Assembly (NCBI GenBank): GCA_947175245.1
Contig: CAMWLW010000001.1
Coordinates: 36,144 to 100,143 of the forward strand
Length of the DNA stretch: 64,000 bases
Direction: 5' to 3'
From: an uncultured Bacteroidales bacterium
Lineage (GTDB): Bacteria; Bacteroidota; Bacteroidia; Bacteroidales; Muribaculaceae
Both the position numbers and the translations under genes were made by a program. The notes below the pieces were generated by a model. That model was not told where the DNA came from and did no database searches. It saw nothing but the letters and a program-made list of their open reading frames with translations. How positions within the stretch are numbered: position 1 is the first letter of the stretch; each line of letters starts with the position of its first letter. Shown here piece after piece: positions 42,228-64,000 of the stretch.

Positions 42228-44522
42228 TCACCAAGCCTGTAGCTCGTCGACAAACATCAGTGCGGGCCATCCGCCCTGCGGGTGATCGGCAGGCAACTTT
42301 GCTACAGGCGCTATGACAACGCGCACTTTTCTAAGGGTACAGGGTGAAAATTCGAGCGTGTGACACTCGATATGGTGATCGGCCTTGGGATCATCGGGAG
42401 GATAGGTCTCGGAGGCAAGTAGCGTGAACGTCTCGCCGTCGGCCGACCCGTAGACCCGGGCCTCGACTGCATCGGCAAGCGCATCGACAGGCTTCACGAC
42501 CGTGCGGAATGACACCCTTGACAACTCGGCTGGCTCGGGTAGCGTCACAGTTGCATCAAAATTTTTAACCGAAAATCCAAGCCAGCGTCCCGTGCGGAAG
42601 TAGCGCGTGCCCTTGAGGCCGTCAACGAGCTGAGGCGCCCCCTGGAATGCGTACACATAGTAAGGCTGGTCGACGAGTTCTACCTCGCCGAATGTCAGTT
42701 TGTTGACTTCGAGTGTATCACACACGGCACGGCCGGCGCGACCGTCGGCCGCGAAGCTGTTCACTTTGATTATACAGTCACGGTCAAGATGCACGGTGCC
42801 GTCATAGAGCGGCGAAGCCTTGGCAGGCTCGGAGCCGTCGAGCGTATAACGTATCTCATAGCCGGGGAGCGCCGTACACGTCATATCGAGACAGCGGTGG
42901 GCGCGGTCGGTCTCATACTTGACGTTGACATTGCTCACGTGGCGGGCATAGTTGTAGCCGCGCGAGTCGTAAGTGTCCATGAGGTGCGGGATGCGGGCGC
43001 GGAAACCCTCGTAGTCCTTGCGGTCGGCATCGACCCACTGCACCTCGCTCAGCGCGGCCATGCGCGGCAGCACGTTATAGCACACGTGGTCAAATGTCTT
43101 GATATATTCAGTCCACAGGTTGGCCTGCACGCCCATCACGAGGTCGGCGCGCTCACCCTCCCACTCGGCGGGACAAGGCTCGAGCGAGTAGACCTTCTCG
43201 ACCGACGTCAGCCCACCCACAGCAAACGGCTCATCGGGGCCGTCGGGGCTCTGAAAGTAATCGAAATAGCAGTATTGTGACGGCGTGAGTATGACGCGAT
43301 GACCACGGCGCGTACCCTCGACGGCACCTGTGACACCATGCCACGACATGATGATGGCGTCGGCCGGAGCCTCACACTCGAGGAGCTCATCCCAGCCTAT
43401 AGGGCTCTTGCCGTGGCGGCGCACTACATCACAGGCGTGGCGTGTAATGTAAGCCTGGAGCTGTGCCTCGGGGCTGACGCCGTCGCGCTCGGTGAGGCCG
43501 AGCTCGGCGATGCGCGCCTGACACTTGGGGCATGCCTGCCACCTGACGCGCGGACACTCGTCGCCACCTATATGTATATAAGGCGCCGGGAACATATCCA
43601 TCACCTCGTCGAGCACATCGGCGATAAATTCGAGCGTCTTGTCATTGCCGGGACACAGCACATCCTCGTTAATGCCCCAGCGCCCCCACACGCTGTAGGG
43701 GCCGCCGGTGCAGCCAAGCTCGGGATAGGCTGCAAGCGCCGCGAGCATGTGACTCGGCAGGTCAATCTCGGGGATAATCTGTATGTGACGGTCGGCCGCA
43801 TATCTCACCAATGAGTCAACATCGGCACGGGTGTAGTACCCGTCGACCGGTGTATGATCATACTCGGGCCCCGTGCGGCCTACTATGGTGCTGTCACGGT
43901 GTGAGCCGATGGTCGTGAGGCGCGGATAACGCTGTATCTCAACGCGCCATCCCTGGTCGTCGGTGAGGTGCAGGTGCAGCGTGTTCATGCCGTGCAGGGC
44001 CATCATGTCGATGTAGGTTTTGACATCGGCCACCGGGAAGAAATGACGCGCGACATCAAGGTGCATGCCGCGGTAACCGAACCTCGGCCTGTCATAGACA
44101 CTGACCGCCGGCAGCAGCACACCACCGTCTGACGGCTGCGGGAGTGACTTTACCAACGTCATGACACCCCTGAAGACGCCGGCCCGCGACGAGCCGTTGA
44201 TCATGATGCTGTCGCCCGTAACACTTAGCGTATAGGCCTCGGGGTTAGGGTCGGCAAGCGTAGACGAGAGAACGATGTGGCCCGACGACACGCCGCCGGA
44301 CACACCGGCAATCATATCGCGCAGCAGACGCGCCTCGCCGGCAAGCGAGTCGGGCGACACGATATCAAAATCACCACCCAACAGGAACGGACGCCCCTGC
44401 TGCATGACAATATCACGCGGCAACGGAATAGTGCGGTAGTCGGCCACGTTTTTAAACGGCTCAGTCGCCGTGAGCGGCAATGTGGCCGACACGACGACTG
44501 AAAACAATAGGTTTCGAAGCAT
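42228..44522 (-). CDS. GH20 beta-N-acetylhexosaminidase with C-terminal CHB_HEX_C-like and discoidin/F5-8-type-C (CBM32-like) modules
   Basis: The ATG at 44520-44522 gives MLRNLLFSVVVSATLPLTA. GYRGMHLDVARHFF. NTLHLHLTDDQGWRVEI. YIHIGGDEC (catalytic D-E pair). C-terminal YTLDGSEP ... and a ~150-aa jelly-roll tail. Its start lies 2 nt after the stop of the upstream DUF4855 gene. Confidence 0.88.
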   Translation of the reverse strand: MLRNLLFSVVVSATLPLTATEPFKNVADYRTIPLPRDIVMQQGRPFLLGGDFDIVSPDSLAGEARLLRDMIAGVSGGVSSGHIVLSSTLADPNPEAYTLSVTGDSIMINGSSRAGVFRGVMTLVKSLPQPSDGGVLLPAVSVYDRPRFGYRGMHLDVARHFFPVADVKTYIDMMALHGMNTLHLHLTDDQGWRVEIQRYPRLTTIGSHRDSTIVGRTGPEYDHTPVDGYYTRADVDSLVRYAADRHIQIIPEIDLPSHMLAALAAYPELGCTGGPYSVWGRWGINEDVLCPGNDKTLEFIADVLDEVMDMFPAPYIHIGGDECPRVRWQACPKCQARIAELGLTERDGVSPEAQLQAYITRHACDVVRRHGKSPIGWDELLECEAPADAIIMSWHGVTGAVEGTRRGHRVILTPSQYCYFDYFQSPDGPDEPFAVGGLTSVEKVYSLEPCPAEWEGERADLVMGVQANLWTEYIKTFDHVCYNVLPRMAALSEVQWVDADRKDYEGFRARIPHLMDTYDSRGYNYARHVSNVNVKYETDRAHRCLDMTCTALPGYEIRYTLDGSEPAKASPLYDGTVHLDRDCIIKVNSFAADGRAGRAVCDTLEVNKLTFGEVELVDQPYYVYAFQGAPQLVDGLKGTRYFRTGRWLGFSVKNFDATVTLPEPAELSRVSFRTVVKPVDALADAVEARVYGSADGETFTLLASETYPPDDPKADHHIECHTLEFSPCTLRKVRVVIAPVAKLPADHPQGGWPALMFVDELQAW

Positions 44523-44524
44523 AA

Positions 44525-45742
44525 TCAACGGTTGCGGTATGGACGCGTGGTTACGAACGTGGCAAACTCGTGATAGAGCTCGACATCGGCCGAGTTGGAC
44601 GAGTGTTTGAGCGTGTGGACGGTATTGTTGTGCTGATAGTAGGCAAGACGCTGGTTGTCCCACACCCCGTTAGCCTTGAAAGCATCCATGTAGTTACGGA
44701 GGCGGTAGGCCTTGCCGCGCGAGGCCAGGGCGTTGTCGTCAAACTCCATCTCCATGCCCATGCCGGCAGCCTTACCCATGTTGCAGGCCTCGTTGAGGCG
44801 CGAGATTGGCACTTCTTCGCTAAAGAAGTAGTTGGGCTGCAGATAAGCATAGTCGAAGCCCCATGTAGCCCACTGTGAGTAACCGTCGGCGGTATAGTAG
44901 GGAATCCAGTTGAACGTGTAGTTGAACCTGTGCATATACTCGGCCACCTTGGGCAGAATAGTATATGTGTTGGTCGACTTCTCGGCTATCCAATAGAAAC
45001 CGGCGAGCTCGATGTTCTTGAAGTTGGCCTTGTCAAAGAGCTCACGCACGCGGTCGATGTACCACTTGCAGGCGGTGACACGGTCGGCATCCTTGGCAAA
45101 GTCGAGCTGCTCGCCATTGACACGACCCCAGTAGGTGGTCGACGACGAGTTGTTGCTCCAGTTCTGACGCGTGATAGGTTCGGGAACTGTAATCACCACG
45201 CGGCGTTTGTAGGGAGGCTCACCGAGGCGCTTGATCGCGTCGCCGACGGTCTCGTCAAGCGCATAGAGGTTGTGCCCCTTGAGGAAGTAGTAGTTGATAA
45301 GGCGCTCCCAGTCATACTTGGTGGCTGAGTTGAGGATGGTGCCGCCCGGATCCTTATAGCCGGTGGCGAACGTTACCATCTGAGAGCCGGTGCCATAGTC
45401 GGCGAACTCGAGGAAGAGGAACGAATCAAAGAACCAGGTCTCGTAGCCCGACTTATTCTTGTAGGTCACGTAGCTCTCGATGCGGTCTTTATCCCAGTTG
45501 GGGATATAGCGCTGAGTACCGCCGCCATAGAACAGTACCATGTCGGTGTAGTCGAGTATCCTCGTGCGCTCCTGTTCCCAGGAATACATCTCGTCACTGT
45601 TGTCGGGGTCGGACGGTTCATTGGGATTGTTGGGGTCGACAGGATTGGTCGGCACGATGATGTAGTCGGGCTCCTTGTCGCCACATGATGACATCAGGGG
45701 CAACAGAGCGAGTGAAAGCAATACACTGAAAATGTGTTTCAT
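44525..45742 (-). CDS. DUF4855-type lipoprotein (uncharacterised, glycosidase-like TIM-barrel suspected)
   Basis: Lipobox LMSSC followed by GDKEPD. It is a clear paralogue of the central part of 57363..59366, e.g. DADRVTACKWYIDRVRELFDKANFKNIELAGFYWIAEKS versus DADRIAACKWYVDKLRERFAAANFQNIEIAGFYWMPEKS. The family assignment is from memory of DUF4855 sequences. Confidence 0.65.
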   Translation of the reverse strand: MKHIFSVLLSLALLPLMSSCGDKEPDYIIVPTNPVDPNNPNEPSDPDNSDEMYSWEQERTRILDYTDMVLFYGGGTQRYIPNWDKDRIESYVTYKNKSGYETWFFDSFLFLEFADYGTGSQMVTFATGYKDPGGTILNSATKYDWERLINYYFLKGHNLYALDETVGDAIKRLGEPPYKRRVVITVPEPITRQNWSNNSSSTTYWGRVNGEQLDFAKDADRVTACKWYIDRVRELFDKANFKNIELAGFYWIAEKSTNTYTILPKVAEYMHRFNYTFNWIPYYTADGYSQWATWGFDYAYLQPNYFFSEEVPISRLNEACNMGKAAGMGMEMEFDDNALASRGKAYRLRNYMDAFKANGVWDNQRLAYYQHNNTVHTLKHSSNSADVELYHEFATFVTTRPYRNR

Positions 45743-45770
45743 ATACAGGTAGAGATTAATTGGAATAAGA

Positions 45771-45894
45771 GGGCGGTGCCACCATTTTGAGTATCAAATC
45801 ATTACAGCTTACACATCATATAACTTCATCTTACTGTCAGTTGAATGATGAAGAAAATGTGTTGATACTTGATACCGGTCATGCAGCACCGCCC
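45771..45894. repeat. Nested inverted repeats forming a long imperfect hairpin in the 177-nt gap between the NAGPA-like and DUF4855 genes
   Basis: gggcggtgc 45771-45779 / gcaccgccc 45886-45894. agtatcaa 45790-45797 / ttgatact 45862-45869. cttcatc 45824-45830 / gatgaag 45847-45853. Confidence 0.7.
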
Positions 45895-45919
45895 CTGTGT
45901 TATGGGGTAGGGTTATAAA

Positions 45920-47551
45920 TTATTTCTTGAAGAAGCCCATAGTCGATACAACGGCACGGTTGTAGGGCGACTGGGTACCGTCATTGTTCTCGATGACAGC
46001 CTTGTTGATGTGCTTGTCGCCGACCATCATGCCTGTTGAGCCGCCACCGTCAAAGTTGACTGCGTCAACACAACCGAGGCCCTTCATGATCTGAGCGAGC
46101 TCCAGGAGGGTAGCGCCACCCGACTGAGCCGTGCGGCCGTCACAGATGAATAGTATGATCTTGCCATCGGCGGTGCAGCCTGCAGCCGTGCGGTCGGGGC
46201 TAACGTTAGTACCGAAGATATCGTAGGCAATGATCTCGTAGTTGGTGAGGTAGCTGTCTACGTCAACAGTGCTGTTGGGAGTCATGGTGAAGTCGAAAGG
46301 AATCTTGCCGTCGATGAGGAGCAGCGGGCCGGCGCTCAGAGCAAACTTGGGAGTCCAGGCAGTAGGCTCGACGGGGAACTTGGCGCCAACCTTGCCATAC
46401 TTGTTCTTGCCGACTACACAGGGAGAGGGAGTGGTATAATATTTGGTCTTGCTGTCGCCATCGGTACCTGCCCAGAAAGCGCGGGGCTGGTCGGCAGCGT
46501 CAACACCGAAGATACCACGGGTAGCATAGTACATCTCGTTATACTCGGGGCTCGAAGTGAGCAGCGAGCCACGGACTTCATTAATCGAGCCCTCGTTCTT
46601 GCCGTTTACGACAGCCAGACCGGTGTGGCGCTCCTGGTAGAAGTAACCGCCGTTGACCATGATGTAGCAGTCGCCGTTGAATGAAGCAGCCTGGTCGTCA
46701 ATAGTCTGAGCCGAAGCAGGAACGTTCACGCGGAACTCGACATCGCTGTTCTTCACGTCGGCGATAGCATACCATGCCTCGAAGTTGTGGCCATTGAGCT
46801 TGGAGGTGGTGCTGTAAACCTCGATAGCCGAGGGGATGCCGGGTGTCGATACCTTTGTCCACTCGAGAGTGATAGCGGGATATTCTTTGGTCATCGATGC
46901 CTTATAAACGGGGCTGTAGTTGACGCCGCCATCAGTCTTGGCATAGGCACGCACACTATATTCAACGCCATACTCGAGAAGAGTGTTGGGAATAACCTGG
47001 AATACCTTGCCGTCATCGGCCTGCTTGGGGCCTGAGATATAGTAGCCGTCGACTGTGGGTGTACCGTCGGCGCTCCAGCAGAGACCCCACTCGGAAACCT
47101 TAGAGCTGTTGAGGACAGTGTAATTGCCATAGATGCAGTTTGTACCCGACTTGAGTTCATTTACCTGAACATTACCCATGCCGGCATAGCTCTCCATATC
47201 AAAGAGAACCGAGGTGAGACGAGACTGCTCCTTGGCGTTGACAGCCTTCACACCGATATAATATTTGTAGCCCTCGGCGAGGCTGGTGGTGGTAAACGAT
47301 GTCTCATTGGCAGCGACCTCGCCTATCTGCTTGAGGGTATTGGCAGGCTCGTCGGCGCGACGTGCCATGATTACATAACCGGTCTCGGCTGTGGCATTAT
47401 CGGTCCATGTAAGTTTGATCTCGTCGGCGCTCAGACGCTCAACAGCTACGTTGGAGGGAGACTGCATGTTGCTGATTACAGCGTCGAAGCCGTCAGAGCA
47501 AGCGGCCAATACGGCCAAACTCGTTGCTAATGTGATAATTGATTTCTTCAT
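45920..47551 (-). CDS. Phosphodiester glycosidase-family (NAGPA / uncovering-enzyme-like, former DUF2233) lipoprotein with an N-terminal FN3-like domain
   Basis: Lipobox LAACSDGFD. FN3-like N-terminus (LSADEIKLTWTDNATAETGYVIMAR). C-terminal IMVNGGYFY ... GLAVVNGK ... ATRGIFGVD ... SAGPLLLIDGK ... RTAAGCTADGKIILFICDGR ... GATLLELAQIMKGLGCVDAVNFDGGGST fits the phosphodiester glycosidase domain. Confidence 0.75.
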   Translation of the reverse strand: MKKSIITLATSLAVLAACSDGFDAVISNMQSPSNVAVERLSADEIKLTWTDNATAETGYVIMARRADEPANTLKQIGEVAANETSFTTTSLAEGYKYYIGVKAVNAKEQSRLTSVLFDMESYAGMGNVQVNELKSGTNCIYGNYTVLNSSKVSEWGLCWSADGTPTVDGYYISGPKQADDGKVFQVIPNTLLEYGVEYSVRAYAKTDGGVNYSPVYKASMTKEYPAITLEWTKVSTPGIPSAIEVYSTTSKLNGHNFEAWYAIADVKNSDVEFRVNVPASAQTIDDQAASFNGDCYIMVNGGYFYQERHTGLAVVNGKNEGSINEVRGSLLTSSPEYNEMYYATRGIFGVDAADQPRAFWAGTDGDSKTKYYTTPSPCVVGKNKYGKVGAKFPVEPTAWTPKFALSAGPLLLIDGKIPFDFTMTPNSTVDVDSYLTNYEIIAYDIFGTNVSPDRTAAGCTADGKIILFICDGRTAQSGGATLLELAQIMKGLGCVDAVNFDGGGSTGMMVGDKHINKAVIENNDGTQSPYNRAVVSTMGFFKK

Positions 47552-47630
47552 GTTAACTTATTTTAAGGGTTTTACTCTATCTTGTTGTATTTAAGCGTCA
47601 ATTACCTCTCACAGTGTTAAAAAGTATTGA

Positions 47631-47660
47631 CAAATATATTGAAATTAATTGATTATCAAA
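47631..47660 (-). promoter_or_regulatory. Candidate internal promoter (TTTG-N18-TATATTTG) ahead of the NAGPA-like/DUF4855/GH20 sub-operon
   Basis: The plus strand has caaatata at 47631-47638 and caaa at 47657-47660, which on the minus strand is TTTG, an 18-nt spacer, then TATATTTG. It lies about 80 nt upstream of the ATG at 47551. Confidence 0.45.
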
Positions 47661-47690
47661 AATATTTAGCGTAAAATTTCATTAAACAGC

Positions 47691-49721
47691 TCAGATTGCC
47701 TTCTTGGCGGCATCAAAAGCCTTTACTTTGATTGATTTTCCGTCGGGCAGAGTTACCTTGCGGTCGGTATCGCTCATGTTGGCTACAATGTAGAATCGCT
47801 TGCCCTTGACATCGGTCCACTCGGCACCCATTACCACGGGAGTAGGCTGATAGTTGGGGACATCGAACGTGGGATTATCGCCGCCGGGAGTAAACTCGGC
47901 CATGAAACGGCCACCGAAGAAGATATCATGGTTGTCCTTGCGGAACTTGGCCAGATTCTTGAGCATCAGAGCCTCGTTGCGGTTGGCCTCGTTCATGAGC
48001 AGCTTAGGCTCGACCCAGCCGAGCTGAGAACCCCACAGGAGTGACTTCATGGTCATGTAACGCAGTGAGCCGTCGTTGATTTTCCAGGGCACGTAGGTAA
48101 AGCCGCTGTAGACACAACGGTCGCTGTAGATAAGGGGGAAGAGGGGCACCATGCGCATATAGCTGACGTGGGGCGAATTGACCACGAGCATCATGTCAAA
48201 GAGGTCGATGTAGGGCTCGGCATTCTCCTCGGTTGTCATGGCCTGGTCGGGGGTATAGAACGACTCGCGCATGTCGGTGAGCACCTTGCGGTAGGCCTCG
48301 GGCCACCATGAGCCGCCGCCCTTTCCGTGACCGTGATTGTCGGCATAACAGGGCTCGGCCGCGGCACAGCCTATCTGATCCATGTACACGCCGTCGGTGC
48401 CGAGGCTGTCGAGAATGTGACGGTTGAGGTAGTGGAGCTTATCCTGCCACAATTGGCTCGCGGGACATGTGACGGTATTGAGCACCTTGGAACTGTAGAC
48501 CTCGGTGTAGAGAGTTCCGTCGGGTTTGCGGCACGATGCCTCCTTGGCGTTCTCGGCCTTATAGCTGGCGGTGGCGGGATCCCACAGGCGGCCGTTGATA
48601 TAAGGTGTTACATGAGCACCCATCTGCTGAGCCTCGGCAATCATCTCCTTGAAGTCGGGCTTGGCGGGGAAATACTCGGGATAGTGGGTATCGAAAGGAT
48701 AATTGTGCCAATAATACCAGTGGAGGCCTACACCCTTGCCATAATACTTGAGGGCCTCGCGCACGGCAGCCATCGTGGCCTCGTCGACATCACCGGGACG
48801 CAGCCACATGTCGGCATGCTCGACCCAGGGGGCGATGTGACGGTCGCGTACGTTCTTTGCAGCCCACTTGGTGTCAAGCACCCAGGGGCGATACCACTCG
48901 AGGGCTGTCTGCTGCCAGCCGGCAGGGTTATAACCGGCCTCGACTGCATAGGGAAGGCTGAACTTACCGCCCTTGCTCCAGTCATAGTTGGCTGTGACTT
49001 CCTGCTGGAATGTCACGTTGTCGCCTTCCATCTTCATGCGCATCACCTTGTTACCGCCATCGGCATCACGGGGTGCGAAGAATACGGTGCCCTCGTTGCC
49101 GGCAGGGTCGTGCATCATCATGAGCTGCATCGAGCCGGTCACCGAGGGGTAGCGGGTCTGGAGCTGTCCCTCGCGGCTGAGGTTGTACTCACAGCCATAG
49201 GCTATGGGCATGATGGCTTTGCCGCCCTTGATCTGCTTGAATGTGATGCGCGGGAACTCGACATCGGTAATCACCCAGTCCTCGGGCAGCGAGGCGTCGA
49301 TGTAGAACGACGGCATGGCGGCATCATCGGCAAGAGCCACAGTCACGGTCACGGGCCAACGGGGGGTATCGTCGAGCACCATGTCCCAGGTGGCCTTTAC
49401 GGCCGGCACACCGTCACGGTCGGTTATCTCGGTACCGCGGTACACGCCCCACTGGGGACGCAGCTGGGGATTCTCGCCTACCGGGCCACGGTAAGTGAGC
49501 TGCCAGGGATAGGTAGTCGAGCCATTGGCAGGCAGTAAGTTCTTGCCCGACATATTGAATTCCTTGAACTGAAAATCATTTCCACCGCCAAATGTTAGAG
49601 AGGCGTTCTCGTTGGCCAGGACAATGTCGCCTGCCGCGGTGCGGCTCGCGGTTGTCTTGGCTTCGGCCGCAAAGGAGAGAGCGGCAATAAGCAATGAAGC
49701 TACAATCGGTGATTTTGTCAT
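47691..49721 (-). CDS. Uncharacterised secreted 676-aa protein, glycosidase-like (TIM-barrel suspected)
   Basis: Signal peptide MTKSPIVASLLIAALSFAAEA. Central region GLHWYYWHNYPFDTHYPEYFP ... HVTPYINGRLWD ... GVYMDQIG ... TTEENAEPY has the alternating hydrophobic-strand/acidic-residue look of a (beta/alpha)8 glycosidase. It resembles what I recall as DUF6259-type proteins, which I cannot verify here. Confidence 0.45.
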   Translation of the reverse strand: MTKSPIVASLLIAALSFAAEAKTTASRTAAGDIVLANENASLTFGGGNDFQFKEFNMSGKNLLPANGSTTYPWQLTYRGPVGENPQLRPQWGVYRGTEITDRDGVPAVKATWDMVLDDTPRWPVTVTVALADDAAMPSFYIDASLPEDWVITDVEFPRITFKQIKGGKAIMPIAYGCEYNLSREGQLQTRYPSVTGSMQLMMMHDPAGNEGTVFFAPRDADGGNKVMRMKMEGDNVTFQQEVTANYDWSKGGKFSLPYAVEAGYNPAGWQQTALEWYRPWVLDTKWAAKNVRDRHIAPWVEHADMWLRPGDVDEATMAAVREALKYYGKGVGLHWYYWHNYPFDTHYPEYFPAKPDFKEMIAEAQQMGAHVTPYINGRLWDPATASYKAENAKEASCRKPDGTLYTEVYSSKVLNTVTCPASQLWQDKLHYLNRHILDSLGTDGVYMDQIGCAAAEPCYADNHGHGKGGGSWWPEAYRKVLTDMRESFYTPDQAMTTEENAEPYIDLFDMMLVVNSPHVSYMRMVPLFPLIYSDRCVYSGFTYVPWKINDGSLRYMTMKSLLWGSQLGWVEPKLLMNEANRNEALMLKNLAKFRKDNHDIFFGGRFMAEFTPGGDNPTFDVPNYQPTPVVMGAEWTDVKGKRFYIVANMSDTDRKVTLPDGKSIKVKAFDAAKKAI

Positions 49722-56439: not shown

Positions 56440-57325
56440 ACATCAGAGCCGCGGCGCCTATGAAGCCGGCATTGTTGCCCAGTCCGGCCGTCAGTATATC
56501 CAGATGCTCGGCAGCCTCCTGGGTTATATATTTGGGCAGAAGTCCCTTGACGCGGGTCAGGAACAGGTCGCTCGAGTCTACGACCGAGCCGCCGAGTATC
56601 ACGGCGTCAGGGTCGATGGTGTTGAGCGTCCAGGCCAGTGCGAACACCAGGCCGTCGGCAAACTGGTCGAACACCTTCAGCGCCGATTCCTCACCGGCAC
56701 GCGCGCGCTCGGCAATCTCCTTGCCGCCTATCTCGACGCCGGTCAAGTCCTTGTACATGCGGCTCAGACCCGGGCCCGACACATAGTCCTCGATAACGCC
56801 CTCACGGTAAGGCGACTGCCATATCTCGCCCGAGTTACCCGTGAAACCTGTCCAGATGCGGCCACTGTTGATGAACGCGCATCCTATGCCCGTGCCCAGG
56901 GTGATACCCAGAATCGACTGGCGGCCGCGACCGGCACCCCACACAGCCTCGCCCAGCATCATGGCGTTCGCGTCATTGTTCATGTGCACCTCCTTGCAGG
57001 TGGTGAGCTCGATAATGTTCTTCAGCGGATAGTTGTGCAGCATCGGCAGCGTGTTGCACTTCAGTATCGTGCCCGAAATGATGTCGAGCGGGCCCGAACA
57101 GCCTATGCCGATACCGCGCAGACGGTTCTCGGGCACCTGTGCCAAAGCCTCGTTGAGCAGGTCAAGGATTCCGGCCACGATTTTCTCACGCGGGCCGTAC
57201 GCATTTGTAGGCACCTCACGAGGGGTTCCCAACACTTTGCCGGTGGAATCGACGACTCCACACTTCATTTTCGTACCGCCTATATCAAGGCCAATCGCCA
57301 GGTCACGTGTTCCGATATTTGTCAT
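56432..57325 (-). CDS. ROK-family sugar kinase (cytoplasmic; hexose or N-acetylhexosamine kinase candidate)
   Basis: LAIGLDIGGTKMKCGVVD (ATPase phosphate-1). MNNDANAMMLGEAVWGAG. GIGCAFI. The segment aligned to the ROK zinc motif reads GNSGEIWQSPYREGVIEDYVSG, so the usual His/Cys zinc ligands are absent. No signal peptide. Confidence 0.75.
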   Translation of the reverse strand: MTNIGTRDLAIGLDIGGTKMKCGVVDSTGKVLGTPREVPTNAYGPREKIVAGILDLLNEALAQVPENRLRGIGIGCSGPLDIISGTILKCNTLPMLHNYPLKNIIELTTCKEVHMNNDANAMMLGEAVWGAGRGRQSILGITLGTGIGCAFINSGRIWTGFTGNSGEIWQSPYREGVIEDYVSGPGLSRMYKDLTGVEIGGKEIAERARAGEESALKVFDQFADGLVFALAWTLNTIDPDAVILGGSVVDSSDLFLTRVKGLLPKYITQEAAEHLDILTAGLGNNAGFIGAAALMFE

Positions 57326-57362: not shown

Positions 57363-59366
57363 TTAATCGGGCAGAACCGATACATAATCGATCTCGGCCA
57401 CGGGCTTGCTCAGAGTCTCCGAAGTCTCGATCTGCAGATAGAACGTGTCGTGGTTGAAAGGCCAGCCCTGCGGATAATAGGGCAGCGACGAGTCATACAG
57501 GTCTTCCTGAACGTTGATCACACGGCCATCTACGGTGAAGATGACATCTTTCTCAGTCCATTTGCACTCAAGTTCAATCCAGCGGCCGGCGATATTGTCA
57601 TCAATCAAGATCGAACGGCGCGGATTACCGAGGTTATCGCAGTTCTGCATCGTCTGCGAGCCACAATACAGCTCGTCGGGACGCGATGAGTCATACTTCA
57701 GCAGGAACAGTTCGCCGCTCTTGGGCAGCGCACCGAGTTTCTCGTTGGTGGGCAGCAGACGCACGGTGAACGTAGCGCCTGTGATACCGGGCAGAATCTT
57801 GACACGGGCTTTCACGGTGCCATACATGAAGTCATGCTTGCGGCGCGTATCGACGGCAGCCTTGCCCTTCATCACCAGCGAGCCGTTCTCACACTGAACG
57901 ATGCCCGATACATTCCAGTCGGTCTTATCCAGGCTGCTCGACTCAAAATCTGTGGTGAAATCGGGGTTCTTGCCCTCCACCATCCTGCGGCGGCGCTCCT
58001 GTATGAACCATGCGAGAGTGTCGATGAACTCGCGGTCGCGTATGTCGGTCTTCTTGGTGAAGTTGTACATGCCTGCGCCACCCTCATAGTAGGCAATCGA
58101 CGACTCGCGGTAGATGCCGTGACGACGGAACGCCGACATATACTTGATACCGCGGTCGCGCTTACAGTCGGCAAAGTCAACCGAAGCGGCCATGTCAAAC
58201 TCCATCTCCACACCCATGTGATGGCTGTATGCCAGTTCGCACACGCGATCCAGACGCGAATCGGCCACGTTGCGGTCCCAGAAGAAAGTCGGCTGTATGT
58301 AAGCCGCGTCAAAGCCCAGCTGACGCCACTCGCTGAAGCCTACCGATGCAAAGTAGGGAATCCAGTAGAACTGCTTGCCCAGCGAGCGCACATACTCACC
58401 CATCGCTATCGTCACATTGCGGCTGTTCAGCGACTTCTCGGGCATCCAGTAGAAACCGGCTATCTCGATATTCTGGAAGTTGGCTGCGGCAAAACGCTCC
58501 CTCAGTTTGTCGACATACCATTTGCATGCCGCGATACGGTCAGCGTCATTGTTGAAATCGATTTTCTTGCCGTTCAGCTCGCCCCAGTCGGTCTGACCAT
58601 ACTGCGGGTCGGGCATCGAGATAACGATTTTATGCTTGAACGAGGGCTTGCCTATGCGGGCGATCTCCTCGCCAATGCACTGGTCGAGAGCGTGGATAGC
58701 CTTGCCTTTCTCAAAGTGACGGTCTATGAGCCATTCCCAGTCAGATTTAACCGACGGGGTCTTGCCGTTCTGGGTCTCAAAAGTCACACCGCGGCCGCTG
58801 TCAAACTCACAGAACAGGAAACCGTCAAACAGCCAGTCACGCACACCGTGGCGGTTGATATGCACCACATAGGGGCGTATCTGCTCAAGATTGAAATCCA
58901 TGCGCTGTATGCCACCCTGATAGATGAGCACCAGGTCGCGTATATCGTTCTTGAGATAATAGCCGCTCGGGGTGAACACCGGGCCGGTCGACGGCTCGTT
59001 ATACACCGCCCATGCCAGGGTTACGTTATGTGCAAGCTGAGTTATCGCAACATTCTGAGCCACCGCGCGCAGAGTCCTCTGAACCGACGAACCGTTTTCA
59101 TAGCCCTTAGCCACGGCCGTGGCCTCGACATTGTACGTGCCCAGCGGCACTTTCACACCCTGAGTGCTCGTGAAAGTCAGCTCAAGATTATTGCTGGCCT
59201 TGAGGAACTTGATTGAACGCGATTCTATGGTATAGCCGTCAGGAATCGACTCGGTGAAAACCACGTCATATACCGGCTCTACCGGGTCATCATCTTTAGA
59301 ACATGCGACGAATATCAATGCAAATACGACGCACAAATAAAAATGCTTGGCAAATAATCTGCTCAT
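57363..59366 (-). CDS. Surface lipoprotein with an N-terminal beta-sandwich, a DUF4855 core, and a C-terminal GH16/ConA-like jelly-roll carrying a degenerate catalytic motif
   Basis: Lipobox FVAC followed by SKDDDPVE (acidic export-signal-like). The DUF4855 core is paralogous to 44525..45742. The C-terminal ~185 aa read GTVKARVKILPGITGATFTVRLLP ... LPKSGELFLLKY ... FTVDGRV. ELFLLK occupies the place of the GH16 ExDxxE motif (codons at 57696-57716). Confidence 0.65.
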   Translation of the reverse strand: MSRLFAKHFYLCVVFALIFVACSKDDDPVEPVYDVVFTESIPDGYTIESRSIKFLKASNNLELTFTSTQGVKVPLGTYNVEATAVAKGYENGSSVQRTLRAVAQNVAITQLAHNVTLAWAVYNEPSTGPVFTPSGYYLKNDIRDLVLIYQGGIQRMDFNLEQIRPYVVHINRHGVRDWLFDGFLFCEFDSGRGVTFETQNGKTPSVKSDWEWLIDRHFEKGKAIHALDQCIGEEIARIGKPSFKHKIVISMPDPQYGQTDWGELNGKKIDFNNDADRIAACKWYVDKLRERFAAANFQNIEIAGFYWMPEKSLNSRNVTIAMGEYVRSLGKQFYWIPYFASVGFSEWRQLGFDAAYIQPTFFWDRNVADSRLDRVCELAYSHHMGVEMEFDMAASVDFADCKRDRGIKYMSAFRRHGIYRESSIAYYEGGAGMYNFTKKTDIRDREFIDTLAWFIQERRRRMVEGKNPDFTTDFESSSLDKTDWNVSGIVQCENGSLVMKGKAAVDTRRKHDFMYGTVKARVKILPGITGATFTVRLLPTNEKLGALPKSGELFLLKYDSSRPDELYCGSQTMQNCDNLGNPRRSILIDDNIAGRWIELECKWTEKDVIFTVDGRVINVQEDLYDSSLPYYPQGWPFNHDTFYLQIETSETLSKPVAEIDYVSVLPD

Positions 59367-59406: not shown

Positions 59407-60465
59407 TCACTCACGTGCCGTGACTTTCGCACCGTGTGTGAAAATACCGGGCTCAATGCCCTTGTACTCACGCGCCCAGGCCTCGATAGCCACCTGCACC
59501 GGGATTATCGACGTGATGGCGAACAGCTCGGGGCGCGGAGCCTCGGCAGCCACCACCGTCAGCCCCTCGCGCGGCGTCATGGCATCCTCACGGTCAGTCA
59601 CAAGCAGCACACGGCCGCCAAAAGCGAGCACATCCTCAATCAGACGGCCAATCTGCTCCCACGTGCCTGACGCAGTCGGAGCGAGAATAACAGCCGCGAA
59701 GCCCGGGCCCACCATCTCGAGCGGCCCGTGGCGGAACTCGCCGCCGGCCAGCGCTTGTGCCGGAGTGTGGCTCGCCTCCATCGCCATCAGGGCCGACTGT
59801 GAGGCCGAAGCCATCACTGTGCCTCGCGCTACAAATTGCAAATAAGACGCGTCGCCCAGGGCGCGAAGCATGCCCGGCAACACGTTGTCCCGTTGATTGA
59901 GCGCCGTCTCTATCGCGCCCGAGAGCCTGTTCCACACATCGGCGTCAAAGCCCTCGCCCGCCATGCGGCGGTCAATCATATATAATACCTGGAAACCTGT
60001 AATAAAAGTCTTGGTCGAGGTCTTTTCCTCGACACCGGCCACAGTGGGCAGCAGGATGTCGGCACGACGTCCCAGAGTGCTCTGAGGCTCATTGGTGATA
60101 ACGGCCAGACGCGGCGTCACACCGCGCTCCGAGAGCCTGTTCACCACATTGACCGTCTCATAGCTCTCGCCGCTTTGCGAGATAGCCACGAGCAGCGTGT
60201 CGCTGTCTACGGCATTGAGTTCATAGTGTAGTAGTTCGCCGGCATTGATAACCGTGACGGCGATACCGTGCTGTGCAAGAAAAACCTGTAACGCACCGGC
60301 CAGGAAGTAAGAACTGCCCATACCGGTCGCAACGACCTTACGCGCCGAGCGGGCAGCCTCGACAAACTTGTCGAGAGCCTCCTGTCCACCCGCCGTCTCA
60401 TAGTGAGCGGCAGTGGCGCTGATAGCGCCGGGCTGGCCAAGGATTTCCTGAAGGAACTGAGTCAT
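59407..60465 (-). CDS. Double-SIS-domain sugar-phosphate isomerase/deaminase (GlmS-C-terminal / AgaS / NagB-II-like), cytoplasmic
   Basis: VVATGMGSSYFLAG and LVAISQSGESYETV in SIS domain 1. A second SIS-like half has FVARGTVMASASQSALMAMEAS. 352 aa with no signal peptide. Confidence 0.7.
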   Translation of the reverse strand: MTQFLQEILGQPGAISATAAHYETAGGQEALDKFVEAARSARKVVATGMGSSYFLAGALQVFLAQHGIAVTVINAGELLHYELNAVDSDTLLVAISQSGESYETVNVVNRLSERGVTPRLAVITNEPQSTLGRRADILLPTVAGVEEKTSTKTFITGFQVLYMIDRRMAGEGFDADVWNRLSGAIETALNQRDNVLPGMLRALGDASYLQFVARGTVMASASQSALMAMEASHTPAQALAGGEFRHGPLEMVGPGFAAVILAPTASGTWEQIGRLIEDVLAFGGRVLLVTDREDAMTPREGLTVVAAEAPRPELFAITSIIPVQVAIEAWAREYKGIEPGIFTHGAKVTARE

Positions 60466-60578: not shown

Positions 60579-60601
60579 TCAATATCCAAGTAAACAATTT
60601 A

Positions 60602-60636
60602 AATGGGGGCTTGCCCGTCGAGGGTTCACCCCCATT
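60602..60636 (-). terminator. Hairpin downstream of the Ig-repeat lipoprotein gene; candidate terminator or processing site
   Basis: aatggggg (60602-60609) / cccccatt (60629-60636), an 8-bp stem with a structured 19-nt loop. On the minus strand it is followed by taaattgttt. Confidence 0.4.
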
Positions 60637-60665
60637 CGAGAGATTACTTATATATTAACGGGGTT

Positions 60666-62552
60666 TTAGATATCGAAACAGGTTATCTCGTAGGCGATGA
60701 GAGCCTGATCACTGACAAGCATATATACCTGTACGGCAGTTCCGTCTTCTGAACGAGCGAAGATAACGTCATTCATTTCAGTTGCGTTCTTGCCCAGTAC
60801 AGTACCTGTAGTGAAGCTATAGCCCGATGACATACCGGTAACAGTAACGCCCGTACCGGGGACACCTTCATTACCCTTAGCATTACCATCACGAGAGTCA
60901 AACACAAGACCGGTACCCAGCGACTTGGAATTAGGCGACATTGTAATATCGGCTACATAAAGTCTATAAGTCCAGTTACCGTTTGACGAATAGCCATTGG
61001 TTGTAGCGAGCAATTGTGTACCGTTAAATTCAATAACGTCATTACTCCTGGTAACATAGCTCCAGTTCGGTGTCAGGGGTGCAGGACTAACCCACCAGTG
61101 AGATTCGGGCTGTTCAAAAAATACACAACGGTTGTTGGCTGTACCGGCGGGTATATAGAATATGCCCATACGTGCCATACCTTGATCCCATACATAGCTC
61201 CACGGAGCCTCTGAGGTCAACATTCTACACTTAGTCGAACACCACATCGAGGCCGCGCCGGCACCATTTCCGGCCCATTCTACATAAGCCTTGCTATAGG
61301 TACCGTTTACAAACGGGAGGATAACACAACGGGGATGAGCTCTGGAGATTGTACCAATTGCAGCATTACCAGATGTAATATCACCCTTACATGAAATGGT
61401 ATTGAACATATCATAATTATTCTGGCCGTTCACACCCCTGGGTGCACCCTGGAAGTATGAGCCATTCATATCAGCCCATAAAATAGGCTTGGGAGCATTC
61501 TCTATACCGTTCACCCAGGCAAAGATACGTACATTAGGATCGGTAATAACACCGCCATTATAATTGACATTAGAATTGACGTATGTGGCAGCGATTAAAT
61601 GGCCTGCATCGTCAGTACATATAGCTGCGAACGAACGGTCAGTAGGCAGTCCTGTTACGTTTACTTTCACATCCTCAAGATACTTACCTGTAAAGCGGTC
61701 GTACACAGGCATTTTTGAAACATCAAGACGATTGCTGAGAATCAGATAGTCACCTACAACAGCCATCGTCGTATTGGCGCCTACCTCAAATCCCCTGGGA
61801 TCGCTTGTCAAAGGCTGGAAACCGAATAAAGCTGCTGTATAGCCGGCGCCATAATCCTTAATGGCGGGATAGTCTACAACAATATCATACACAGCCTTTG
61901 TAACACCATCTTGAGCTGTTACTGTGATCTGAGGATAATCACTCAGGTCGGCGATTCCGGTTTCAGGATCATAAGCCGAGCACTCAAAAGTAGCCCACGG
62001 TGCAACATTGATAATGGCCGAATGTAAGGCACCGTCAATGGCCGACGATGTCTTGTAGATTGATACTGTGCCATGCTCACCTTCGGCAGCAGGAGCCTTG
62101 ATTATTATCGTAGCACGTTCCATCTCGGTAAGCACAACCGAAGCGATATCGGTTGAGCTCGATTTCACATACTCGGCGAGGATAGTATAAGAGGTAGCAT
62201 GACCCTTATCGTCCAATAGATTTGTACGATAGCCGGCGGCCAGGTCGTGAATACCGCTAATCGAAGGATTGAACGAGTAACCAACAGGAGTAGTAGCCTC
62301 AAGTTTCATCTGAGTGAGGTCACCCATGATAGGATCAGTGTCACTGATGTAATACGGTACCTGAACAGTTATTGTACCTGCCTCGGGATCTATTATAGCA
62401 GGGTACTCATCAGTATTACCCACTATAAATCCTTTGACGCTCAATTGAGCAGTGCCGATACCTTCAAGTCGGTTTATTTCGTCAACCTGGGTACAGCTCG
62501 AGAGCATGACGGTCGAGACAACGAGTCCGGCAAATAAATATTTAATTTTCAT
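60666..62552 (-). CDS. PUL-associated surface lipoprotein with N-terminal Ig-like repeats (DUF5018-like) and a large C-terminal beta-rich domain; surface glycan-binding protein candidate
   Basis: Lipobox MLSSC followed by TQVDE. ITVQVPYYISDTDPIMGDLTQMKLEATTPVGYSFNPSISG ... ATSYTILAEY resembles DUF5018-type modules. The position immediately after SusD is typical of SusE/F-position proteins. Confidence 0.5.
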   Translation of the reverse strand: MKIKYLFAGLVVSTVMLSSCTQVDEINRLEGIGTAQLSVKGFIVGNTDEYPAIIDPEAGTITVQVPYYISDTDPIMGDLTQMKLEATTPVGYSFNPSISGIHDLAAGYRTNLLDDKGHATSYTILAEYVKSSSTDIASVVLTEMERATIIIKAPAAEGEHGTVSIYKTSSAIDGALHSAIINVAPWATFECSAYDPETGIADLSDYPQITVTAQDGVTKAVYDIVVDYPAIKDYGAGYTAALFGFQPLTSDPRGFEVGANTTMAVVGDYLILSNRLDVSKMPVYDRFTGKYLEDVKVNVTGLPTDRSFAAICTDDAGHLIAATYVNSNVNYNGGVITDPNVRIFAWVNGIENAPKPILWADMNGSYFQGAPRGVNGQNNYDMFNTISCKGDITSGNAAIGTISRAHPRCVILPFVNGTYSKAYVEWAGNGAGAASMWCSTKCRMLTSEAPWSYVWDQGMARMGIFYIPAGTANNRCVFFEQPESHWWVSPAPLTPNWSYVTRSNDVIEFNGTQLLATTNGYSSNGNWTYRLYVADITMSPNSKSLGTGLVFDSRDGNAKGNEGVPGTGVTVTGMSSGYSFTTGTVLGKNATEMNDVIFARSEDGTAVQVYMLVSDQALIAYEITCFDI

Positions 62553-62573
62553 AGGATTGTTGTGTTAATAAGT

Positions 62574-64000
62574 TTATTTCCATGCATCATTCTGATCACA
62601 CAGTGGGTTACCCTGAATCTCACCGTAAGGAATCGGGAAGATCTCATATTTCTTTGGGAAGATACGGTCATAGTCGTCAGCCTCGATAACTTCATAGCTG
62701 AATGTATTGCCGGTCTTCGTAACCTTCACGCCGTGAACACGCTTGCCGTTAAGAACCTCCTGTGAGATACCCCAGCGCATGATGTCGTCATAGCGGTGAC
62801 CCTCGAGACCGAGCTCGCAGATGCGCTCCTTCTGGAGATCAACGAGATAATCTTCCCAAGTCGATTTCTGAGGCTTGGCAGGCATGTTTACGCGTGTACG
62901 AATCACGTTGAGGTCGTTGTAGGCATCGCTCCACTTGTTAAGACGGGCTGAAGCCTCCGAGCGGATGAAGTAAATCTCGGCGAGACGCATTTCGATCCAG
63001 TGCTGGTCGCTGAGTTTGTTAGTGAAGTTATAAGCCTTATCACCGGTCTTTGAGCTCAGGAACTTGCGTACATAGTAACCTGTGGTACTCTTATGTGTGT
63101 TGTCCTGGCCAGAAGGAGCATAGGTCATGCACTGGTCTGAACCACCTTCCCAACACTGAATTTCGACACCCTTGAAGGTGCTGCCGTTGGCGAGAATCGA
63201 CTGGTAGAAACGCGGGTCGCGGTTCTTGTAAGGCTCGTTGCCATACTTGGCGAGATTGGCCCAGTCAAATGCTTCCCAGTTGTCACCTACCTTGATGTCA
63301 AACTGCGATGCATACTCCTCGGTGGGGGTAGCGGCTGCACCGAACTGATCCTTATAACCCAACGAAGCGGCAAAGCTGGGAGGACACATATAGGTGTCAT
63401 AGTTGTGCTGCTTCTTCTCAACCTCAAACAGCACCGGGATAATGATCTCGGGGTTGGCGGGATTGGTGTAGATGGCAGCGATGTCGCTTGACAGCGAGTA
63501 TTTCTTTGAGTCAATCACAGCGGTAGCAGCATCGTAGGCCACCTGATAACGGCCGGCGATAAGAGCGGCGCGGGCTTTCATTGCCATTGCGGCCATCTTG
63601 GTAACGCGACCGTAGTCACCTGCGGGCCATGACTCGGGAAGGTCGGCTATAGCCTTGTCATACTCGCCGAGAATGAAGTCCCAGGTCTCTTCCTTGGTGG
63701 CACGAGCCTTGGCATTTTCATTCTGGTCATCAACCTTATCCTCGCTTACACGGAGAACAACACCGCCGTGGAACTTGGCAAGCTCCTGATAGGCGAAAGC
63801 GCGCAGGAAGCGTACCTCGGCCACACGGGCAGCTGCATCTTCAGCCGGGAGGTGGCTTATACGGCCGGCCTTGGCGTCAACAAGGAAATAATTGAATTTA
63901 CGTATGTGTGAGTACATCGTGCCCCAGTTGCTGCGGGGATTGCTCTCGACAGTCATCGAGTTGACCTGGCTGAAGAACTTGTTCTGACCCTGGCCTACGT
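62574..64000 (-). CDS. SusD/RagB-family nutrient-binding protein, C-terminal ~475 codons; the 5' end lies outside the window
   Basis: The ORF track lists 62574..63956 from an internal Met. The frame stays open to the window edge (upstream codons read VGQGQNKFFSQVNS). SusD hallmarks: EVRFLRAFAYQELAKFHGG, AEIYFIRSEA, KERICELGLEGHRYDDIMRW. Confidence 0.85.
   Translation of the reverse strand, partial: VGQGQNKFFSQVNSMTVESNPRSNWGTMYSHIRKFNYFLVDAKAGRISHLPAEDAAARVAEVRFLRAFAYQELAKFHGGVVLRVSEDKVDDQNENAKARATKEETWDFILGEYDKAIADLPESWPAGDYGRVTKMAAMAMKARAALIAGRYQVAYDAATAVIDSKKYSLSSDIAAIYTNPANPEIIIPVLFEVEKKQHNYDTYMCPPSFAASLGYKDQFGAAATPTEEYASQFDIKVGDNWEAFDWANLAKYGNEPYKNRDPRFYQSILANGSTFKGVEIQCWEGGSDQCMTYAPSGQDNTHKSTTGYYVRKFLSSKTGDKAYNFTNKLSDQHWIEMRLAEIYFIRSEASARLNKWSDAYNDLNVIRTRVNMPAKPQKSTWEDYLVDLQKERICELGLEGHRYDDIMRWGISQEVLNGKRVHGVKVTKTGNTFSYEVIEADDYDRIFPKKYEIFPIPYGEIQGNPLCDQNDAWK

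Follow-up and report, generated by a model that had tools for sequence, protein, structure and literature searches.

A widespread Bacteroidales polysaccharide utilisation locus family predicted to act on glycans rich in amino sugars

Described relatives of the locus

The nearest described relative of the locus considered here is the uncharacterised region BT0435-BT0449 of Bacteroides thetaiotaomicron VPI-5482. This region encodes a DUF4434 protein (BT0435), a GH89 enzyme (BT0438), a SusC/SusD pair (BT0439/40), a DUF4855 protein (BT0442), a DUF5009 protein, two GHL10 proteins, and a calcineurin-like phosphoesterase. Keratan sulfate and colonic mucin glycans induce BT0438, an "orphan" gene in the source literature whose product is active on p-nitrophenyl-α-N-acetylglucosaminide (pNP-α-GlcNAc) only. 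Here, we analyse a stretch of 64,000 nucleotides (nt) from contig CAMWLW010000001.1 of an uncultured Muribaculaceae bacterium, hereafter called the window, in which 12 genes run from a SusD gene to a terminal GH20 gene. With a probability of roughly 55%, we regard this region as the enzyme-rich part of a polysaccharide utilisation locus (PUL) that represents a widespread, uncharacterised PUL family of Bacteroidales for a glycan composed largely of 2-amino sugars.

The window locus resembles BT0435-BT0449 in being a SusC/D locus that joins DUF4855 to candidate hydrolases, either α-GlcNAc-active or of the GHL type, and to a phospho-ester enzyme. The DUF4434 and GH89 families of the B. thetaiotaomicron region also recur in variants of the window locus family. 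In contrast, neither DUF6259 nor NAGPA is listed for BT0435-BT0449, the gene order is different, and a metallophosphoesterase is present instead of the NAGPA-type glycosidase. The scan of species-representative genomes yielded no locus from VPI-5482 with the 752-residue protein of the window (designated Unk752); other B. thetaiotaomicron strains carry one. This probably explains why the locus has not been studied before.

No characterised counterpart PUL was found through Pfam and NCBIfam family names, sequence and profile searches of the PDB, or the full-text literature. Neither a characterised syntenic locus nor a well-studied family emerged for DUF4855, DUF6259, or Unk752, in agreement with the original prediction, made from the sequence of the window, that the enzyme set is unlike that of any characterised PUL. 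That prediction had also called the PUL an orphan. The term is apt in that a characterised counterpart is missing, but the locus is not unique, being widespread in Bacteroidales.

Bacteroides degrades complex N-glycans and sialoglycans with the cluster BT0455-BT0461, which contains GH33, three GH20, two GH2, and a sialate esterase, in addition to the nanLET-RokA-NagA/B pathway. Several GH20 enzymes, GH2, SGNH and SASA esterases, ROK, and NagA/NagB are features that this system shares with the window locus family. However, the window locus lacks a sialidase, an aldolase, and a galactosidase; three DUF or unannotated families form its core, and its GH2 falls into another clade.

A different type of relationship is seen with oxidative modules for the cleavage of 3-keto-glycosides, the biochemistry of which has been described (bioRxiv 10.1101/2024.03.25.586180). 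The set of two Gfo/Idh/MocA oxidoreductases and DUF1080 found in such clusters (Alistipes AL1-5 and BT2156-2160) is shared by a common Bacteroides variant of our locus family, but is absent from the window locus. In this variant (L084-L086), the two oxidoreductases and a DUF1080 "3-keto-disaccharide hydrolase" occupy the position of the SIS, ROK, and GH2 genes, and an 81-residue Ig_GlcNase fragment beside the oxidoreductases is an apparent GH2 relic. This arrangement suggests that an oxidative module for cleavage has taken the place of a Koshland glycosidase; the module may be functionally equivalent to the GH2-ROK-SIS set. Upstream genes of the same variant encode DUF4434, a sugar porter, and an AGE-type GlcNAc 2-epimerase; the epimerase hints at N-acetylmannosamine (ManNAc) among the products.

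Conserved gene order and layout

The survey of related loci was performed by comparing an alignment of Unk752 with one genome per bacterial species, which returned 79 loci, followed by tblastn, open reading frame (ORF) calling, and clustering. Unk752 adjoins DUF6259 in 38 non-redundant loci, and these were used for the occurrence counts, with loci having enough flanking sequence as denominators. In such informative loci, DUF5018 is present in 28 of 30, SusD in 27 of 30, GH20 in 25 of 30, DUF4855 in 24 of 29, and NAGPA in 17 of 29. The genes for an MFS transporter, NagA, and NagB occur in 15-18 of 29 loci, whereas those for GH2, SIS, and ROK occur in 12, 11, and 8 of 30, respectively. The canonical order begins with SusC, SusD, and one or two DUF5018 genes, continues with the variable set SIS-ROK-GH2, and then reaches GH20, Unk752, and DUF6259. 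DUF6259 is followed by NAGPA and an SGNH esterase (both variable), DUF4855, a variable GH89, and the variable set MFS-NagA-NagB-Gfo/Idh/MocA (two copies)-ApbE.

Carriers of the locus include Muribaculaceae, Bacteroides (B. caecimuris and strains labelled B. thetaiotaomicron), Alistipes, Cryptobacteroides, and other rumen and hindgut Bacteroidales, at protein identities of 45-90%. The core comprises SusC/D, DUF5018, GH20, Unk752, DUF6259, and DUF4855, plus one of two interchangeable amino-sugar modules: GH2-ROK-SIS, as in the window, or MFS-NagA-NagB with oxidoreductases. The GH2, ROK, and SIS genes are inherited together and alternate with MFS-NagA-NagB, and amino-sugar catabolism is always linked to the core. 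Some variants add a GH89 α-N-acetylglucosaminidase, and others an AGE-type GlcNAc 2-epimerase, a sugar transporter, and DUF4434; SGNH, SASA, and S9 esterases are also carried by relatives. Fusions tie neighbouring genes together, such as GH20-Unk752 (P0391) and tandem DUF4855 proteins that combine both DUF4855 types of the window (A and B). Dozens of genomes, spread over several families of Bacteroidales, have the same order, and the gene arrangement is therefore not a matter of chance.

The identification as a PUL is supported by SusD, DUF5018, the co-directional enzymes, and this synteny. The SusD-like outer-membrane glycan-binding lipoprotein (62574 to beyond 64000, minus strand; Pfam SusD_RagB 2.8e-48 and SusD-like_3) is cut by the end of the window, which leaves its N-terminal ~82 residues outside. 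A full-length version of 556 residues (P0271) from a Muribaculaceae metagenome-assembled genome (MAG) is 100% identical to the window SusD. The original prediction placed a SusC gene just beyond the window. In the closest retrievable relatives (L087 and L088), a SusC of 1078 residues is located directly upstream of a 77%-identical SusD, and SusC also precedes SusD in L001, L003, and L084-L086; the SusC of the window genome itself would lie outside the sequence. The next gene encodes a 628-residue DUF5018 lipoprotein (60666-62552, minus strand; Pfam DUF5018 3.2e-23; lipobox ...MLSSC20), which is probably a surface glycan-binding protein. DUF5018 directly follows SusD in 28 of 30 informative loci and is often duplicated. 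The DUF5018 lipoprotein, two GH20 enzymes, GH2, and the candidate hydrolases are encoded co-directionally, with all gaps at most 40 nt except three. In the Muribaculaceae relatives, the 6.7 kb upstream contain no regulator, and the Alistipes and Bacteroides versions of the locus start with an upstream Peripla_BP_3 + AraC-HTH regulator.

All 12 minus-strand ORFs of the original prediction were found at the coordinates that it had given, with the gene content that it had described. From SusD towards the terminal GH20 gene, the intergenic gaps are 21, 200, 40, 37, ~10 (or an 8-nt overlap), 14, 16-31, 10, 139, and 177 nt, a pattern with three long gaps and one overlapping junction, as had been reported. 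The overlap (4 nt, ATGA) lies at the last junction, between a DUF4855 gene and the terminal GH20 gene, once the ATG at 44522 is taken as the start; the GTG start previously assigned to this GH20 gene is discarded, as the ATG is almost certainly the true one. The unit is closed by an intrinsic terminator (42155-42203, minus strand) with a perfect 16-bp stem (dG -19.9 kcal/mol) followed by TTTGTTTTG, beyond which convergent housekeeping genes are located (gluQ-RS-like, RNase H, AlaDH, aroK, mscL, and dnaX).

Each of the three longer gaps contains a notable element on the minus strand. In the 200-nt gap after the SusD and DUF5018 genes, a GC-rich hairpin (60595-60638; RNAfold dG -22 kcal/mol) is possibly a partial terminator or an attenuator. 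The AT-rich 139-nt gap (47552-47690) harbours two Bacteroidetes-type -7 motifs (TAnnTTTG) found by a regular-expression scan, and may hold an internal promoter. A long imperfect hairpin of ~135 nt (45764-45898; RNAfold dG -47.7 kcal/mol) fills most of the 177-nt gap between the NAGPA and DUF4855 genes. Its GC-rich stem motif (GGGGCGGTGC / GCACCGCCCC) is absent from the matching region of six relatives and from the rest of the window, and the hairpin may have a regulatory role or represent a small insertion. Neither Rfam nor tRNA scans gave a match in the window.

Protein families of the locus

Two cytoplasmic proteins without signal peptides are predicted to handle the released amino sugars. 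The two-SIS-domain protein (59407-60465, minus strand; Pfam SIS) matches the NCBIfam models of the C-terminal half of glmS (4.6e-38), GlmD (1.8e-15), and NagB-II (1e-10), all below the equivalog cut-offs. The scores against these cut-offs were 131/418 bits for the GlmS isomerase half (the best match), 57/580 for GlmD, 41/430 for NagB-II, and 30/529 for agaS. From its domain type and context, it is predicted to be an amino-sugar-6-phosphate deaminase/isomerase of the GlmD/NagB-II type that resembles the isomerase domain of GlmS. The ROK-family sugar kinase (56432-57325, minus strand; Pfam ROK 4.7e-52) gave NCBIfam matches to the ROK glucokinase subfamily and to NagK-like models, every one below the cut-off, and is a predicted glucosamine (GlcN) or GlcNAc kinase. 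None of the 10 locus proteins scanned had an NCBIfam equivalog.

The GH2 protein (53641-56439, minus strand; likely start at TTG 56421) has an Ig_GlcNase domain (Pfam 2.1e-18) and a signal peptide of the signal peptidase I (SPI) type, consistent with a periplasmic location. Its best match in the PDB is the exo-β-D-glucosaminidase CsxA of Amycolatopsis orientalis (2vzo; phmmer E 4.7e-62, residues 16-931), whereas the best β-mannosidase match is at 1e-32. The alignment with CsxA extends over the full length, including Ig_GlcNase. The sequence KNE608LG aligns with FNSE(541)T of CsxA, and GSE(D) aligns with RLE(394)G, which places a Glu at the position of residue 394 by our count. In CsxA, we take E541 to be the catalytic nucleophile and E394 to be the carboxylate that binds the C2 amine. 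The window enzyme is thus predicted to be an exo-β-D-glucosaminidase of the CsxA clade, CsxA-like but not a close orthologue. Of the two options in the original description (β-mannosidase/glucosaminidase-like), the glucosaminidase side is favoured. In comparison with CsxA and with GlcN catabolism by GlmD/NagB-II, the GH2, kinase, and SIS deaminase of the window are co-inherited as a module, but they are part of a PUL and not of a chitosanase system.

The locus contains two GH20 exo-β-N-acetylhexosaminidases with Pfam E values of ~1e-107 to 1e-110, both with SPI-type signals and with an HIGGDE motif (at residue 301 and residue 317, respectively), which contains the D-E pair of substrate-assisted catalysis. 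The periplasmic core GH20 (52007-53626, minus strand; Pfam GH20 1.8e-107) has its best PDB match with 6q63 (2.8e-87). The second GH20, identified by Pfam, is the last gene of the locus (42228-44522, minus strand; 764 residues from ATG 44522) and carries a CHB_HEX_C/Fn3_assoc region and a weakly F5/8C-like C-terminus. Among the retrieved relatives, only L005 has a copy of it (82% identity). Seven kilobases downstream of the locus, a 674-residue fusion of a NagB-like Glucosamine_iso domain and PIG-L, the GlcNAc deacetylase family, is encoded (32875-34899, minus strand). It might supply a deacetylase step that is absent from the locus itself.

The remaining core families have no characterised members. 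The original prediction counted two unknown large enzymes. One of them, Unk752, is indeed without a family model, but the other belongs to Pfam DUF6259. Unk752 (752 residues; 49732-51990, minus strand; likely start at ATG 51975) has an SPI-type signal, consistent with a periplasmic location, and matched nothing in Pfam, NCBIfam, or a PDB sequence search. It shares 99% identity with a partial protein from a MAG, and the family comprises 1125 cluster representatives at E<=1e-3 (50% clustering). The AlphaFold2 (AF2) model (pLDDT 79.8) consists of a β-sandwich, a (β/α)8 barrel, and a second β-sandwich. In Foldseek, the top matches were GH101 EngBF, an endo-α-N-acetylgalactosaminidase, followed by GH36 α-galactosaminidase and α-galactosidases and by GH31, with probability 1.0 and E values of 5e-15 to 1e-11 and with low TM-scores of 0.3-0.45. 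The model shares its three-domain arrangement with GH101, GH36, and GH31 (clan GH-D-like), but sequence similarity to them is undetectable. An invariant stretch, F-V-Y-F-D466-G-A-E-D, follows a barrel strand and appears to be situated where the nucleophiles of clan GH-D lie; D466, E469, and D470 are candidate catalytic residues. Unk752 is predicted from this model to be a periplasmic retaining α-glycosidase with the GH101/GH36/GH31 architecture.

Unk752 also occurs in other contexts and fusions. In addition to the GH20-Unk752 fusion (1112 residues), the distant homologues include P0420 and P0414, and fusions in this group are GH28-like + GDSL + Unk752-like (1406 residues) and Unk752 with a weak GHL10 region (1245 residues). 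In Rikenellaceae, Prolixibacteraceae, and Mariniphaga (L016, L027-L029, L038, and L045), Unk752 is found outside a PUL context and clusters with DUF4434, DUF4855 and DUF4855-like proteins, an FAD-dependent oxidoreductase (PF12831), Gfo/Idh/MocA with a twin-arginine translocation (TAT) signal, ApbE, and NagA/NagB; this recurrent set may form one pathway. In Proteiniphilum and an unclassified Bacteroidales MAG (L072, L074, L076, and L081), it is adjacent to a DegT/DnrJ/EryC1-type aminotransferase, whose TAT-like signal suggests a periplasmic location, and to a protein with a weak match to neutral ceramidase. Contexts outside the Bacteroidales locus (Acidobacteriota and Proteiniphilum), with esterases, an M14 peptidase, sugar-acid genes, and TAT-signal DegT, are too heterogeneous to constrain the substrate.

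The DUF6259 protein (676 residues; 47691-49721, minus strand; Pfam DUF6259 4.1e-92) has an SPI-type signal indicative of a periplasmic location and a weak GHL6 match (2e-4), and is a candidate glycoside hydrolase with a GHL6-like TIM barrel. It had no match in the PDB by sequence, and a profile search gave spurious antibody matches only. We considered the possibility that DUF6259 and Unk752 are paralogues, but hhalign returned just a weak N-terminal match with a probability of 57%, and the two are not regarded as paralogues here.

DUF4855 is represented twice in the window. Paralogue A (405 residues; 44525-45742, minus strand; Pfam DUF4855 2.2e-94) is the core gene and encodes a protein with a lipobox. 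Its AF2 model (pLDDT 91) is a (β/α)8 barrel with invariant Glu residues after strand 4 (E254) and on strand 7 (E331/E333) as candidate catalytic residues, and the protein is a candidate glycoside hydrolase. A GH18-like endo-β-N-acetylglucosaminidase (ENGase) was rejected as an assignment: the DxxDxDxE/DxDxE motif is present in neither paralogue, and the GH18 fold match is weak (E 2e-5, TM 0.40). No PDB sequence match was obtained for DUF4855. Paralogue B (667 residues; 57363-59366, minus strand; Pfam DUF4855 3e-93, weak GH16) is a lipoprotein with a lipobox and an acidic tract (FVAC22SKDDDP), and consists of an N-terminal Ig-like region, the DUF4855 TIM barrel, and a ConA/GH16-like C-terminus. 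The two domains of the tandem DUF4855 proteins (P0169 and P0217) match paralogues A and B of the window, and B is 46% identical to the second domain. The gene for paralogue B is inserted between SIS and ROK in the window genome only; in every retrieved relative, ROK directly follows SIS.

The uncovering-enzyme-like phosphodiester glycosidase of the original prediction turned out to be a bona fide member of the NAGPA family. This lipoprotein (45920-47551, minus strand; lipobox LAAC18SDGFD) combines fn3 (Pfam 1.5e-9) with a NAGPA domain (PF09992; 7.7e-25) that scores 88.5 bits against a gathering cut-off of 25. The motif D501GGGS505, which all of 11 orthologues retain, aligns with vertebrate NAGPA and with 3OHG, a bacterial structure of DUF2233; N300GGYF and R532 are likewise invariant in orthologues. 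The window protein thus shares with human/vertebrate NAGPA, the GlcNAc-1-phosphodiester α-N-acetylglucosaminidase known as the uncovering enzyme, and with 3OHG the DGGGS, RTAxG, and NGG(Y/F)F motifs and an Arg ~30 residues after DGGGS. R532 is located 31 residues after the Asp of DGGGS, compared with 30 for R316 of the human enzyme, an equivalence based on spacing and not on a structural alignment. T474 of the window protein aligns with human T260, but most orthologues have Ile at this position; R316 and T260 are both phosphate ligands in the human enzyme. In the 2026 cryo-EM study of human NAGPA (PMC13474241), DGGGS (human 286-290) is the invariant recognition motif for GlcNAc-1-P. The window protein differs from these enzymes in that it is a lipoprotein that carries fn3 plus an additional N-terminal domain, and is <20% identical to them outside the motifs. 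No published bacterial NAGPA member borne by a PUL was found in a full-text literature search. The window protein is probably a lipoprotein exposed at the cell surface, and may cleave N-acetylhexosamine (HexNAc)-α-1-phosphodiesters.

The first half of the window contains a second, classical PUL of the xylan type (644-32707). Its genes encode GH43 with CBM6, a CE1-type esterase, a CBM4/9 protein, GH10, a BT_3987-like/DUF5627 surface glycan-binding protein, two tandem SusC/SusD pairs, two GH43 β-xylosidase-like enzymes, a SASA esterase with GH2_N, a hybrid two-component sensor of 1364 residues, GH115, a xylose-isomerase-like TIM protein, and an FGGY kinase. The stretch at 34-36 kb, around the gene for the NagB-like/PIG-L fusion, has an unusually low GC content (0.44 against ~0.55 elsewhere) and includes a 319-residue ORF with a TTG start and no Pfam match (35383-36342, minus strand).

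Predicted substrate and its implications

That the locus is a PUL for an amino-sugar glycan appears highly probable. The GH2-ROK-SIS module alternates with MFS-NagA-NagB, and this alternation is the strongest sign that the pathway yields glucosamine or GlcNAc. A substrate rich in HexNAc and hexosamine (HexN), with α- and β-linkages and partial de-N-acetylation, is well supported. The HexNAc-rich glycan proposed originally is strongly reinforced by related loci, which always link the core to one of the two modules and in some cases to GH89 or the AGE-type epimerase. Because relatives carry esterases, we infer that the substrate is often O-acetylated.

A lipobox with acidic residues is found in NAGPA, both DUF4855 paralogues, and DUF5018, while GH2, both GH20 enzymes, Unk752, and DUF6259 have SPI-type signals, and ROK and SIS have neither. 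A lipobox followed by acidic residues serves as a rule for surface exposure, and by this rule the four lipoproteins are likely to be exposed. The following route can be proposed on the basis of family membership and predicted location. SusC/SusD and DUF5018 would bind the glycan at the cell surface, where the lipoproteins DUF4855 A and B and fn3-NAGPA would make the first cuts, with NAGPA cleaving the C1-O bond wherever a HexNAc-α-1-phosphate linkage occurs. Imported oligosaccharides would be trimmed in the periplasm by the two GH20 enzymes acting as β-N-acetylhexosaminidases, for which the catalytic residues are present, and the CsxA-like GH2 would remove β-GlcN from de-N-acetylated residues. 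Unk752, with its modelled fold, and DUF6259 would take off α-linked residues (GH89 in some Bacteroides), and in relatives the SGNH, SASA, or S9 esterases would remove O-acetyl groups. Finally, two cytoplasmic enzymes, the ROK kinase and the SIS deaminase that resembles GlmS, would convert GlcN (or GlcNAc) into fructose-6-P.

Several observations weigh against this interpretation. The roles of all members, and the substrate itself, are predicted from sequence and models, and the assignment of surface exposure depends on general sequence rules. The GH2 is only distantly related to CsxA, and its acid/base residue belongs to the canonical clan GH-A motif VNE527 and not to the S-D/E469 of CsxA; a β-mannosidase-like or other specificity is conceivable. 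For DUF4855 A, the Foldseek neighbours (GH18 chitinases, the DUF4434 protein BT_0435, and GH20) are weak, with E values of 2e-5 to 1e-3 and TM ~0.4. An inner-membrane transporter and NagA are not among the genes of the window locus, and the three longer gaps, with their hairpins and possible promoters, leave room for sub-operons. The sugar-1-phosphate diester bridges of the original prediction, such as those of teichoic-acid-like or secondary cell-wall polymers, are plausible, and the NAGPA homologue on which they rest is real and intact. However, the bridges are not established, because NAGPA is a single, accessory gene that is absent from 12 of 29 informative loci (~40%), no phosphatase or phosphodiesterase is encoded in the NAGPA-containing loci, and the T260-equivalent position is Ile in most orthologues.

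As the source of the substrate, we tentatively rank first a HexNAc polymer of the microbial cell envelope that is sometimes phosphodiester-linked, although this source does not command a majority; our best guess includes teichoic-acid-like polymers, secondary cell-wall polysaccharides, and capsules. Some of these polymers carry HexNAc-1-phosphate linkages, and polymers with such linkages occur in every habitat of the locus, namely gut, rumen, and sediment. The intact and probably surface-located NAGPA fits such a polymer, as do the hints of ManNAc, GlcNAc, and O-acetyl groups. A host glycan is an unlikely source. It would be a HexNAc-rich remnant of mucin O-glycans (Tn, core 3/5/6, or α1,4-GlcNAc-capped gland mucin) or an N-glycan, including GlcNAc-P-Man-capped high-mannose glycans, with Unk752 and DUF6259 as α-GalNAc/α-GlcNAc-ases and DUF4855 acting in an endo manner analogous to GH18 ENGases. 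The top fold matches of Unk752 (GH101 endo-α-GalNAc-ase and GH36 α-galactosaminidase), the GH89 of Bacteroides variants, and the action of eukaryotic NAGPA on N-glycans are in line with this source. The VPI-5482 gene BT0438, which is near the DUF4855 gene BT0442, responds to keratan sulfate and colonic mucin O-glycans, but the enzyme cleaved no mucin glycans, only pNP-α-GlcNAc. Bacteroides sialoglycan loci have a downstream part similar to the set of SASA and GxDLY-SGNH esterases, AGE epimerase, ROK, and NagA/B, yet no locus of the family carries a sialidase, fucosidase, galactosidase, sulfatase, GH18/GH85, α-mannosidase, or mucinase. The GH2 is also nearer to the glucosaminidase CsxA than to β-mannosidases, and the locus family extends to rumen Bacteroidales, with Unk752/DUF4855/DUF4434 clusters in sediment Prolixibacteraceae.

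Purely β-linked glucosamine polymers, that is, fungal or insect chitin/chitosan oligomers or the partially de-N-acetylated poly-β-1,6-N-acetylglucosamine (PNAG) of biofilms, with the DUF proteins as depolymerases, are decidedly improbable. The combination of GH20, CsxA-like GH2, kinase, and GlcN-6-P deaminase resembles the logic of chitosan/GlcN catabolism, and the NagB-like/PIG-L fusion 7 kb away would suit it, but family scans and the DUF4855 fold search detected no GH18-, GH19-, GH46-, GH75-, or GH153-like protein. Moreover, the Unk752 fold is of an α-glycosidase type, NAGPA and GH89 are α-GlcNAc-specific families, and chitin or chitosan would not need the esterases and AGE epimerase of relatives. 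What is left of the probability, after the cell-envelope, host-glycan, and chitosan/PNAG-type sources, falls to some other amino-sugar glycan. We also considered that the 12 genes are two or three operons (SusCD-DUF5018; SIS to DUF6259; NAGPA; DUF4855-GH20) adjacent by accident, which seems very improbable. The hairpins and the two TAnnTTTG promoter-like motifs in the 200-, 139-, and 177-nt gaps, the swapping of the catabolic module and several enzymes among lineages, and the lineage-specific addition of DUF4855 B and the terminal GH20 would agree with such a composite. However, the order persists across families whose proteins are 45-60% identical, fusions link neighbours, and the array is free of opposite-strand genes and has a single strong terminator, at its end.

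Taken as an amino-sugar glycan system, the locus is a PUL of the ordinary kind with unusual conserved content, namely three uncharacterised core families and a bacterial NAGPA homologue. It is doubtful, though conceivable, that the family is the first recognised Bacteroidales system for HexNAc-phosphate envelope polymers, in which a surface NAGPA makes the cuts and Unk752, DUF6259, and DUF4855 A/B are founding glycoside hydrolase families. PULs are how gut Bacteroidales live, and each newly deciphered one tends to define enzyme families and a nutrient niche; the present family is found in common human-gut Bacteroides and Alistipes, mouse Muribaculaceae, and rumen taxa. Even if the substrate were a host glycan, the locus would provide new α-HexNAc-active families of biotechnological interest for glycan analysis and blood-group or mucin remodelling. 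Should the locus act on cell-wall or capsular material of bacteria, it would point to cross-feeding in which dead or living neighbours are consumed, an aspect of gut ecology that is poorly mapped, and would give bacterial NAGPA-family proteins their first physiological role.

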